NCBI GenBank assembly: GCA_031546985.1
Contig: JAVBJN010000016.1
Location: 32,931-96,930 of the forward strand
Origin: Chitinophagaceae bacterium
GTDB taxonomy: Bacteria > Bacteroidota > Bacteroidia > Chitinophagales > Chitinophagaceae
Length of the DNA stretch: 64,000 bases
Direction of reading: 5' to 3'
Shown here piece by piece: positions 1 to 9,807 of the stretch. The stretch's first letter is position 1; each line of letters begins with the position of its first letter. The position numbers and the translations under genes were made by a program. The notes beneath the pieces were generated by a model, which searched no databases, was not told the origin of the DNA, and was given only the letters and a program-made list of their open reading frames with translations.

Positions 1-3000
1 AGTCCGTTGCCCCAGCACAGCCGTGCGCCCCTGCAATACATCGACCTCATGGGTGGCAAAAAGCCCCACCTGATGCGCAGTTACAACAATGGCATGGGCA
101 AAACAGTAGCGGTTACCTATAAAACCTCCACGCAATTTTATTTAGCCGATAAAAAGGAAGGCATCCACTGGGCCACCAAACTACCTTTTCCGGTGCATTG
201 CATCCACACCATTACCACCAGCGATAGCGTAAGCGGCACCAGTTATACCCAAAGCTATACATACCGCCACGGCTATTACGACCATGAAGAACGAGAGTTT
301 CGCGGCTTTGGTTATGTAGAAACGCTGGACATAGAAAGGGCCCAAATTAGTACATTGGCACATTCATCCATTGGCACATTGGAAACATTGGATCAGCCCC
401 CCGTCCTCACCAAAACCTGGTACCATACCGGCGCCTGCACCCGCGAAGGAGGATTGCTCAAACAGTACAAAAAAGAGTACTTCCCCGTAGCCGGCTGGGA
501 CGATAGCATGCCCATTGCCACATTCCCCGCAGGGATGGATGCAGCGGAGTTCTTCGAAGCGCACCGTGCGCTCAAGGGCTTACCACTGCGCCAGGAAGTC
601 TATGCCCAGGACGGCGACGATCTGGCCTATATTCCGTATGCCGTTACCGCCAGTGCTTATACTGTAAAACTGGTACAGGAAAAAAGGAAGAATCGCTACG
701 CGTCTTTTCTCACGCAGCCGCAGCAAAGCATGGTGTTCAGTTGCGAGCGTGATGCGGAAGATCCCCGCATTATGCAGGAACTTACCTTGCAAACTGATAC
801 ATATGGTAATGTGCTGCAAAGCGCACAGGTCGCTTATCCCCGCAAAACGGTAGATGCGAATGCGCCGCAAAAAGTAAAAGACGAGCAGGCCAAAATGCAT
901 ATCACCTGCACGCAAAACAGTTTTACCAACGATGCCATAACAGTAGCGCAATACCGCCTGCGTGTACCTTATGAAGCACAAAGTTTTGAAGCGCTGGGCC
1001 TTACCCAGCCCACAGGCTTATGGACGGTAGATAGCTTTAACGCAGCGCTTAATGCTGCTACGGAAATTGATTTTTCCGCTACGGCTAGCGGAGCCGAAGA
1101 AAAACGCCTGTTAAGCCATACCCGGACCCTGTTTAAAGACAATAATGCAGCCGCAACACCATTGGCTTTAGGCACCATAGAAACCCTGGCCATACCGCAT
1201 GAGCAATACCAGTTGGTTTCTACACTTGCTACCCGAAACTATTGTTACGGCAGCAAAATCCAGCCGGGCATGAAAGAAGAAGGTGGTTTTACAGACCTGG
1301 ATAATGACCAAAACTGGTGGTTATCCTCTGGTACCGCGCAGTATGTTGCACCTGCAACTCATTTTTACAACCCGGTATCCTTTACCGATCCCTGGGGTAA
1401 AACCACCACCATCAGCTATTGGGGTAGTTATCACTTACTGCCACAAACCGTAACCAATGCCCTGGGCCTCATCAGTAGTATAGCAGCCTACCACTGGCGC
1501 AACCTGCAACCGGTACGCATGAAGGATGCCAATAACAACATCAGTGAAATGCTGTACGATGCCCTGGGATTGCCTGTGGCTATGGCCGTAAAAGGCAAAG
1601 GGACTGAAGGCGACGAACTGGATATTGATTTATACAGTACCACAGACGAGGCGGCACAAACCGCGTTCTTCAACAGCCCAACCAGCAATGCCAACACCTT
1701 GTTGCAAGGCGCTACCTGGCGTTGTGTGTACGATCTGCACAGCACACCAGTGAGCGTGGGCATGATAGCCCGTCAGAAACATGTGCACGATGCCACACCA
1801 TCCGTAACAGGGCAAAACACCGACCACTTGGTACGCCTCAGCTATACCGATGGTATGGGCCGCATCATCATGCATAAAGCCCAATGCGAGCCCAATGCTG
1901 AGAATAGCAATAAAGCCTGGATCGGCAGCGGCCGCACCATTTACAACAACAAGGGCAATGCCGTCATGCAGTTTGAGCCCTACTTCAGCGATAGCCATCT
2001 TTGCGATACCGCCGAGCAAGCGGCTAACCTGGGTGTGAGTCCTAAATTGTATTACGATGCACTGGGACGCGTGTTCAAGACAGAGCTACCCGATGGCACC
2101 TTCACTAAAACCGAATGGACCGCCTGGGAACAATTGGCTTACGATAACAACGATACCGTAAAGGATAACCAATGGTATACCGATCGCATTAACGGGCAAT
2201 TGGGCACCGAAGAAAAAGATGCCGCCACCAAAGCCGCACTACATTACAACACCCCAACGGTGCAGTACACCGATAGCATGGCGAGGCCGTTTTATACCAG
2301 ACAGTATCTGAAGGATAAAACAACCGCTACATCCAGTGACTATATCGATAGCTATGCCCAATTAGACATCATTGGCAATCGCATAGCGGTGATAGACGGC
2401 CGTGGCAATACGCCGCTGCAATACCGCTACAACCTGCTCAAACAACCGTGTTACCAAACCAGCATCGACAGTGGCGAAGGTTTTACCCTTACCGATGCAG
2501 CTGGTCAGCCGCTCTATGCCTGGGATGCCGACAACCGAAGGTTTGCGATGGTGTATGACGGATTAAGAAGGCCAACCAGCAAAACCGTTGCTTTTTACAA
2601 TGCACCCAACTGGACCAATGCCAAATTGCTGGAAACCTTTACTTATGGCGAAGGACAGACCAACGCCGCTGCTAAAAACTTCAACGGGCAACTGTATGCG
2701 CATTGCGATGCCTCCGGCAAACAGTCTATCCCTGATGGGTACGATTTTAAAGGCAATCCTAAAAAGGTGCAGCAACAACTATTGGAAGATAAAACCGCTA
2801 CCGATACAGATTGGAATACCAGCCCGGTATTGTCTGCCCTGGATCTGTTTGAAAGCACAACCCTTGCCGATGCATTGGGCCGCCCGGTGCGCAGTACCGA
2901 TCCCGGTGGTAACATTACCGAGCATGTGTACGACAAAGGTGGCGCGTTAAAATCGGTGATCCTCAATGGCAGCAGTTATGTGAGCGATATCCACTACGAT

Positions 3001-9564: not shown

Positions 9565-9807
9565 TTAAATCGTACTGTTTTCAGGGGAGTTTACACACCC
9601 TCTTCTCTTTTTTGCTGCAACTACCATGTCACGTAACTCATTCAATTTATCTTTTTTAGTGTAATCGTCCACTATATTTACAGTCACTTCTGCAATAGTA
9701 TATAACCAGTCACGGATGTGAAGCAAATCTTTGTCTGAATATTTAGTGCGCTTGCTATTCCATATTGTAAGTACCCCCGATTTTTCAGACAACGAATTAA
9801 GTGACAT
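9565..9807 (-). CDS. hypothetical protein (80 aa); 3' end abuts or overlaps the IS3 right end
   Basis: ORF only; no recognisable motif. Confidence 0.25.
   Translation of the reverse strand: MSLNSLSEKSGVLTIWNSKRTKYSDKDLLHIRDWLYTIAEVTVNIVDDYTKKDKLNELRDMVVAAKKRRGCVNSPENSTI

Follow-up and report, generated by a model that had tools for sequence, protein, structure and literature searches.

Does the TcB-TcC-type toxin gene at the start of a 64,000-nt stretch of the Chitinophagaceae bacterium contig JAVBJN010000016.1 keep a spare toxin tip behind its own, and could that tip be brought back into use? The stretch (hereafter the window, whose numbering all coordinates follow, as the residue numbers of the toxin protein follow its frame in the window) begins within a TcB-TcC (BC) fusion gene that ends in a hypervariable tip (tip 1) and is followed by a small gene (imm1). 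Further downstream on the same strand stands an orphan cassette, that is, a second, 5'-truncated copy of the RHS core with another tip (tip 2) and a small gene of its own (imm2). The window thus holds two toxin/immunity pairings, and both are conserved in other genomes. We conclude that the BC-fusion gene is probably a main-plus-orphan polymorphic-toxin locus, in which a displaced, silent spare tip would remain capable of recombination. Window proteins were scanned with the profiles of Pfam, NCBIfam, and PADLOC, and related loci (L001-L003, L079-L081, L083-L085, and others) were fetched from genome and metagenome collections.

The frame of the main gene is open from the first base of the window, and 1-5142 (+) represents its 3' 5.1 kb (1713 codons). 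In this single open frame, TcdB_toxin_midN (90.9 bits), TcdB_toxin_midC (102.8), and RHS_repeat (50.2) all scored above the Pfam cut-off. The closest relatives fetched, the fusions of L001 (Flavipsychrobacter) and L002 (Taibaiella), show the order SpvB-propeller-TcdB-RHS and are 57-60% identical to the window protein. The latter runs colinearly with the fusions of L001 (2444 aa) and L002 (2425 aa) over their residues 731-2142 and 728-2123, respectively. Both relatives possess the SpvB and FG-GAP N-terminal parts, and in L002 a TcA gene lies directly 5' of the fusion. On the basis of the Pfam domains and this colinearity, the gene is a BC fusion with its N-terminus beyond the window; by comparison with the relatives, the SpvB and beta-propeller parts, some 720-730 residues, would lie outside. 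An earlier reading of the bare letters (the sequence-only reading) had proposed a TcB-TcC-type RHS toxin gene here, which is borne out by the TcdB mid domains and RHS in one frame. Behind the fusions of L001 (11905-12123) and L002 (11908-12132), an open reading frame (ORF) of 72-74 aa starts at the BC stop codon or no more than 3 nt away from it, and these small ORFs are possible candidates for immunity genes.

The RHS repeat-associated core domain of the main gene spans 3958-4257 (+; TIGR03696, aa 1320-1419, 61 bits against a cut-off of 32.5) and is closed by a predicted autoproteolysis motif, NPVRFTDPTG. It follows the pattern PxxxxDxxG, defined as needed for TcC autoproteolysis (PMC7861908). 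The tips predicted to be released are ~293 aa (tip 1) and ~311 aa (tip 2) long, the usual length of TcC hypervariable regions being 201-400 aa (PMC7861908). By analogy with the family, the RHS shell would encapsulate the C-terminal tip, the tip would be cut off at this aspartyl-protease motif at the end of the RHS core, and the translationally coupled imm1 would neutralise tip 1 in the producer cell.

The orphan cassette is a 644-codon open frame at 5900-7831 (+), made up of core copy B (5900-6807), the end of the core (to 6895), and tip 2. Its core also scored above the TIGR03696 cut-off (aa 250-332, 77 bits) and ends with NPIIRIDDDG. Copy A of the direct repeat (3211-4118, +) comprises the last ~302 RHS-core codons that the main gene has in common with the orphan at the DNA level: 3211-4115/4118 matches 5900-6804/6807 at an offset of 2689 without gaps (905-908 bp). 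This alignment confirmed the ~908-bp repeat that had been described before, with 62 mismatches in 908 nt and an identity of 93.3% (93.2-93.4%), not ~95%. The left edge of the repeat is sharp at 5900, and the right edge lies just past ...YYVPWLCRW, beyond which the two proteins read AACDP and SAGDP. DNA likeness does stop at the boundary ...YVPWLCRW...DP given by the sequence-only reading, and different AT-rich tips follow, but the border between core and tip had been set too early, as the RHS core model (TIGR03696) reaches aa 1419 of the main protein (nt 4257) and aa 332 of the orphan protein (nt 6895). Since the core and the cleavage motif run 29-46 aa past the DNA repeat, the swappable unit includes these core residues. 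The GC content of the tips and small genes is 29-43%, compared with ~50% in the RHS core.

How did the second core come to stand there? Between the two cassettes lies an IS5-family (insertion sequence) transposase remnant at 5689-5899 (-), which retains the C-terminal ~50-70 residues within a 73-aa ORF (5689-5910, minus strand). It matched transpos_IS5_3 of NCBIfam at positions 208-254 of 258 (E 1.6e-7) and Pfam DDE_Tnp_1_2 (E 8.7e-6), both below the cut-off; a complete IS5, with a whole DDE transposase and terminal inverted repeats, was not found, and only the remnant is present. The element is cut internally and meets the sharp edge of the orphan core, so that the earlier description of a headless orphan starting at a truncated IS5 holds. 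An in-frame TAA (5888-5890) stands three codons ahead of the junction, and the first possible start is a TTG at 5993. Because the junction lies inside the transposase gene and not at an IS end, it represents an illegitimate join, not transposition. Neither the window nor the 160+ fetched loci yielded other copies of this IS5 or of the IS3 element described below.

C-terminal displacement is the established model for rhs genes, and we propose that it applies here. The sequence from 5900 on would be the former 3' end of the gene, consisting of 302 core codons, tip 2, and imm2. The gene would have acquired a diverged core-tip1-imm1 segment that ended within a copy of IS5, through homologous recombination in the core on one side and the illegitimate join at 5899/5900 on the other, and the old tip would have been displaced downstream. 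Such a history would explain why the repeat copies have diverged like alleles, why the GC content of tips and immunity genes is low, why the IS5 is cut internally, and why a start codon is missing. Tip 2 is probably silent, since the junction supplies the orphan with neither a start codon nor a promoter; a sigma-70 promoter scan gave nothing above the shuffled expectation, the sigma-70 model being ill-suited to Bacteroidota. Even so placed, imm2 could still protect against tip2-type toxins. RecA-type recombination over the 905-bp repeat would join tip 2 to the full-length gene and delete tip1-imm1, and after a prior duplication both tip versions could be retained. In Salmonella LT2, a 522-bp, 95%-identical repeat, shorter than the 905 bp in the window, supports recombination between main gene and orphan, and this recombination comes after a duplication, which preserves the earlier immunity gene (PMC3967940). 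For TcC, RHS-core-dependent replacement of hypervariable regions has been proposed (PMC7861908).

The alternative that survives best is that the orphan is a decaying relic of an IS-mediated rearrangement, with no present role, which never recombines with the main gene. Its position between two insertion sequences speaks for this. On the right, an IS3-family element (~8318-9597, -) starts 10 bp past imm2. Members of this family have orfA (helix-turn-helix), orfB (DDE/rve), a -1 frameshift, terminal inverted repeats, and a target duplication of 3-4 bp. Here orfA occupies 9261-9527 (-), 9267-9273 is the slippery site A_AAA_AAG, and orfB has an open frame of 310 codons (9291 to 8362; NCBIfam, 185 bits against a cut-off of 160). 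The coding capacity is thus intact, which bears out, as far as the genes go, the earlier claim of an intact IS3 just downstream of imm2. The terminal repeats, at about 8318 and 9597, are imperfect and gapped, and no target-site duplication was found (flanks ATT and CCC), so either the ends are mis-set or the element took part in a further rearrangement. That the whole array is flanked by IS elements, as had been claimed, is true of the right side (IS3), while the left side lies outside the window. Two minus-strand ORFs beside the IS3 (9565-9807 and 9859-10602) had no family match.

The relic explanation is also favored by the absence of a start codon at the orphan junction and by the rarity of a second core. 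Among 159 related loci, TcB sequence was present in 132 and more than one core end in only 4, so that arrays are not general. These four include L085 (the closest metagenome match), L003 (the third-closest genome match), and L079. L085 (700-7100, 68% identity) and L003 (6200-10000, 60%) carry two or three 5'-truncated core-tip modules on one strand, cut at differing core positions. A recurrent truncation point at the orphan boundary (aa 1071) was considered and rejected, as the relatives are cut at 798, 834, 1063, 1091, 1175, 1226, 1261, and 1291. L079 (1-19200; Fibrobacteraceae metagenome-assembled genome, CAVTJU010000003.1) holds a canonical Tc operon, in which genes for a TcA (TcB-binding domain included) and a glycosyltransferase accompany a 2352-aa BC fusion. 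Behind the fusion come a DUF416 gene and then, in succession, three RHS-core/tip modules of orphan type, all with small ORFs downstream. Judged by its gene order, L079 is a larger version of the window architecture in another phylum, and together with L085, L003, and L081 it supports the main-plus-orphan reading.

Against decay stand the state of the orphan and the pattern of the repeat differences. The 644-codon frame is still open, imm2 is intact, and neither the cleavage motif nor any conserved residue of the tip 2 domain has been lost. Codon position 3 holds 46 of the 62 differences, and 14 of the 302 residues differ; over 3211-4110, the codons that differ from the main copy are synonymous in 40 cases and non-synonymous in 13. 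Moreover, the differences are unevenly spread. Mismatches per 60-nt bin across the repeat were 1, 1, 2, 1, 1, 8, 6, 8, 1, 0, 4, 2, 8, 13, and 3, the variance between bins was above that of all 20,000 codon-position-aware permutations (P<5e-5), and a mismatch-free run of 119 nt (P ~0.009) was found. This clustered mosaic suggests past gene conversion, to which uneven constraint could contribute, and such patches of identity suggest exchange between the copies. We therefore regard the relic explanation as unlikely.

A main-plus-orphan locus with a silent spare tip has further to be weighed against the idea that the orphan is expressed alone, from TTG 5993 or an ATG further on, yielding a short protein of RHS core plus toxin that is delivered or used independently of the BC shell. 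The evidence for this comes from the tip 2 toxin domain (7493-7828, +; ~115 aa). It is 52-75% identical to the C-termini of 13 proteins, all of which are short (244-495 aa). Five of the 13, three of them from Chryseobacterium, are named in their sources as RHS repeat-associated proteins, and several of the 13 come from large contigs. The tip2-type toxin was found only on such short RHS-core proteins. However, a core fragment of 302 residues is too small for an encapsulating shell, as far as the structures of BC and Rhs proteins generally tell, and the orphan has neither a secretion signal nor a recognisable promoter. In addition, many of the short homologues are themselves orphans behind full-length Rhs genes, as in L081, or lie on short contigs. 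Independent expression of the orphan thus appears very unlikely. The tip 2 domain had no match in Pfam, a profile search of Protein Data Bank (PDB) sequences with it was empty, and it is unrelated to the toxin domain of tip 1 (hhalign probability 15%). Between the stop codon of the orphan toxin and imm2 there is a hairpin with a 20-bp stem (7858-7904, +; dG -25.6 kcal/mol, z-score -6.5), whose arms are 95% complementary with one G-U pair. Its role may be that of an attenuator or of an opposite-strand terminator, or it may be a scar of recombination.

Each tip is followed by a small gene. The candidate immunity gene imm1 (5135-5557, +; 140 aa) has an ATG that overlaps the toxin stop codon (ATGAATAA), and in the unrelated contigs L083 (36% identity, E 3e-21) and L084 (35%, E 1e-17) its homologues come directly after tip1-type toxins. 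The candidate for tip 2, imm2 (7928-8308, +; 126 aa), has homologues in L080 (34% identity, E 7e-24) and L081 (35%, E 9e-18), in both cases directly after a tip2-type toxin. L081 is from Chryseobacterium taeanense and carries a full-length Rhs gene with an immunity gene, then an orphan with an immunity gene. Because the homologues of both small genes sit behind the same toxin type in unrelated genomes, we conclude that these are genuine toxin/immunity pairs; in the sequence comparison across the four loci L080, L081, L083, and L084, both behave as cognate toxin/immunity modules. The adjacency of toxin and small ORF kept in these loci thus upholds the two pairs that the sequence-only reading had named. 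A strong hairpin 3' of imm1 (5578-5614, +; dG -31.3 kcal/mol, z-score -5.8 against shuffles) is a likely terminator of the expressed module.

The small ORFs might instead be chaperones, accessory factors, or unrelated genes. Neither imm1 nor imm2 has a match in Pfam, NCBIfam, or PADLOC, and a survey of Tc loci reported zero immunity genes among the loci examined, with B-C fusions set aside (Song et al. 2021; PMC7861908). Against this, in unrelated carriers and genomes each small gene goes with its own type of toxin, translation of imm1 is coupled to that of the toxin, neither protein has a signal peptide, their size (126-140 aa) is typical, and polymorphic toxins of the TcdB/TcaC class have already been reported with Imm families (PMC3482391). 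A role other than immunity consequently has little chance of being right. Among 117 related BC loci, 30 had an ATG ORF of at least 70 aa tight behind the BC gene, and a random-position control gave 33%; as the control positions fall inside genes, we claim no enrichment of tight downstream ORFs. The last alternative, that the repeat is an assembly duplication artefact, can be dismissed, since 62 substitutions with a bias to third codon positions mark two diverged alleles under protein-level constraint and the sequences 3' of the copies differ, each being homologous to independent toxin/immunity families.

What would tip 1 do? This hypervariable region (4258-5142, +; ~293 aa) consists of a linker, a Gly/Ala-rich hydrophobic segment with a PT-TG-like pre-toxin region (at about nt 4327-4611), a Ser/Thr/Pro linker, and the C-terminal toxin domain. 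Its N-terminal part is 69% identical to P0014, which has an EndoU C-terminus, and 50% to P0015 (PT-TG); the Pfam PT-TG match in the window protein itself was sub-threshold (E 0.01). For the last ~95 residues, a word-based search gave no homologues. An exhaustive HMMER search with the domain returned 182 cluster representatives, in every one of which the domain is C-terminal. Among the carriers are proteins with RHS, LXG (type VII), filamentous-haemagglutinin repeats (CdiA-like), DUF4280 (PAAR-like), PT-TG, and SpvB. In this family, Asp-Cys is invariant, His near-invariant, and Asp invariant (DCSEIA...YHQV...YDP), the conserved residues of the window protein being C1630, H1671, and D1682.

The tip 1 toxin domain (4840-5139, +) had no Pfam match at E<=5, and its matches to PDB sequences were at chance level. 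An AlphaFold model built from 31 sequences was confident (predicted local distance difference test [pLDDT], 89.8) and resembles glutamine amidases and deamidases, with the conserved Cys-His-Asp triad on a predicted papain/transglutaminase-like fold. NTAQ1, the Chryseobacterium protein-glutaminase, SseI, TecA, and PMT share this predicted fold and Cys-His-Asp set with tip 1. From the model, tip 1 is most likely a papain/transglutaminase-like Cys-His-Asp enzyme, probably a protein deamidase or amidase, with a protease as the alternative. It may equal 'Tox-PL3' of Zhang et al. 2012, the signature of which is C, [DE]H, [DE], R (PMC3482391).

A giant TcA gene (3846 aa), overlooked by the sequence-only reading and beyond its interval, lies at 35042-46582 (+) and was recognized by its Pfam domains, VRP1 (aa 573-740), ABC_toxin_N (1531-1657), Neuraminidase-like (1689-1835), and TcA_TcB_BD (2647-2928; 367 bits). 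No TcB or TcC gene follows it. The A component is therefore present, albeit 30 kb off, and this TcA is likely the partner through which the BC protein would be delivered. Canonical TcA proteins stop after the TcB-binding domain, but this one, unusually, runs on for ~918 residues, made up of three tandem repeats of ~235 aa each (LAWWxADAxxNxL...VFMVGEKT...), for which Pfam gave no match.

Several points weigh against a main gene with a recombination-capable spare tip. The N-terminus of the BC protein and everything upstream of the BC gene lie outside the window. TcA is 30 kb from the BC gene and shares no operon with it, and housekeeping genes and a defence island lie between them. The AlphaFold2 model of tip 2, built from 14 sequences, was unreliable (pLDDT 50). 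The missing target duplication of the IS3 may reflect further rearrangement beside imm2. The genome and metagenome collections held no strain above 68% amino-acid identity for the protein of the repeat (best 67-68%), and the 6.7% divergence of the repeat lowers the efficiency of recombination. Finally, recombination, expression, and toxicity are themselves predictions. The sequence-only reading, otherwise largely right, went too far in calling the array active: the one indirect sign of switching is the clustered mosaic of differences, which fits past gene conversion.

The locus can be set beside three kinds of known system. Its layout is like that of the main/orphan Rhs loci of Enterobacteria (Salmonella Typhimurium LT2 STM0291/STM0292, Dickeya, and E. 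coli), in which a full gene with tip and immunity gene is followed by a 5'-truncated core with another tip and immunity gene (PMC3967940; PMC3150448). The shared core is of similar identity, ~95% over 522 bp in LT2 (PMC3967940) and 93.3% over 905 bp in the window. Unlike these loci, the window has a TcB-TcC fusion as carrier and not a PAAR/VgrG-linked Rhs protein of type VI secretion, its host belongs to the Bacteroidota, an IS5 remnant stands between the cassettes, and recombination is a proposal from sequence comparison.

The second kind comprises the Tc BC components, such as Photorhabdus TcdB2-TccC3, Yersinia entomophaga YenB-YenC, and the natural fusion ABA52082.1 of B. pseudomallei. The window protein resembles them in its TcdB mid domains, RHS shell, PxxxxDxxG core, and hypervariable region of ~290-310 aa, and in having a TcA in the genome. 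In characterised Tc loci, however, the tips are anti-eukaryotic and are reported to come without immunity genes (PMC7861908), whereas the tips of the window have conserved immunity partners; the tip 1 family of the window is common to LXG, CdiA-like, and PAAR-like carriers, and TcA is non-adjacent. It should be mentioned that an 'orphan TcC' in PMC7861908 denotes a complete gene remote from TcA/TcB and has no 5' truncation.

Third, Zhang et al. 2012 described SpvB/TcdB-RHS proteins (TcdB/TcaC) of Bacteroidetes and Fibrobacteres as a trafficking mode of polymorphic toxins (PMC3482391). The papain-like tips of this class are Tox-PL1, Tox-PL-2, and Tox-PL3, and Imm families occur in some members (PMC3482391). 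With SpvB, beta-propeller, RHS, and a variable toxin, the class has the same architecture as the window locus and the same phyla. Unlike its entries, neither tip of the window matches a Pfam Tox or Ntox model. A literature search for two motifs as text strings found nothing.

For Rhs and CdiA toxins, a layout of main gene and orphan is textbook knowledge, and the locus therefore adds no new principle. Its interest lies in the details. Both tips of a Tc-type BC fusion are paired with candidate immunity genes, in contrast to the survey that found none in Tc loci (PMC7861908), so that the locus is a concrete test case for Tc-like machines of environmental Bacteroidota. Furthermore, it contributes two unannotated toxin families with immunity partners, one of which (tip 1) spans type V (T5), type VI (T6), type VII (T7), and RHS carriers. 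The clean junction, at which the truncated IS5 abuts the core exactly, documents how the tip displacement would have happened. A far-reaching reading would be that Tc complexes beyond insect pathogens are armed with exchangeable interbacterial toxin/immunity cassettes and aimed at bacteria or other microbes, not only at animal cells; the example would be this Bacteroidota BC fusion, with a giant TcA of three additional C-terminal repeats encoded in its genome. We think this distinctly unlikely. If it were true, the immunity genes and orphan arrays would reflect conflict with kin and competitors, and the view that Tc loci lack immunity genes because their targets are only eukaryotic would be overturned.

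The surroundings in the window contain further genes of conflict and secretion. Between the BC locus and TcA, a defence-island-like block (22247-30881, +) encodes a 1592-aa DUF4011/AAA_11/AAA_12/REase_MTES_1575 protein, with a full-length match to the candidate system PDC-S37 of PADLOC (1405 bits) and also a match to Hhe, as well as a 1097-aa helicase of MkoA type and a protein like staphylococcal nuclease. At 19364-20659 (+) there is a gene for a HipA-like kinase toxin (Couple_hipA, HipA_C). Closer to the toxin locus, the host is marked as a member of the Bacteroidota by two secreted proteins, a subtilase among them, that bear C-terminal sorting domains for type-IX secretion and are encoded at 10702-13359 (-).

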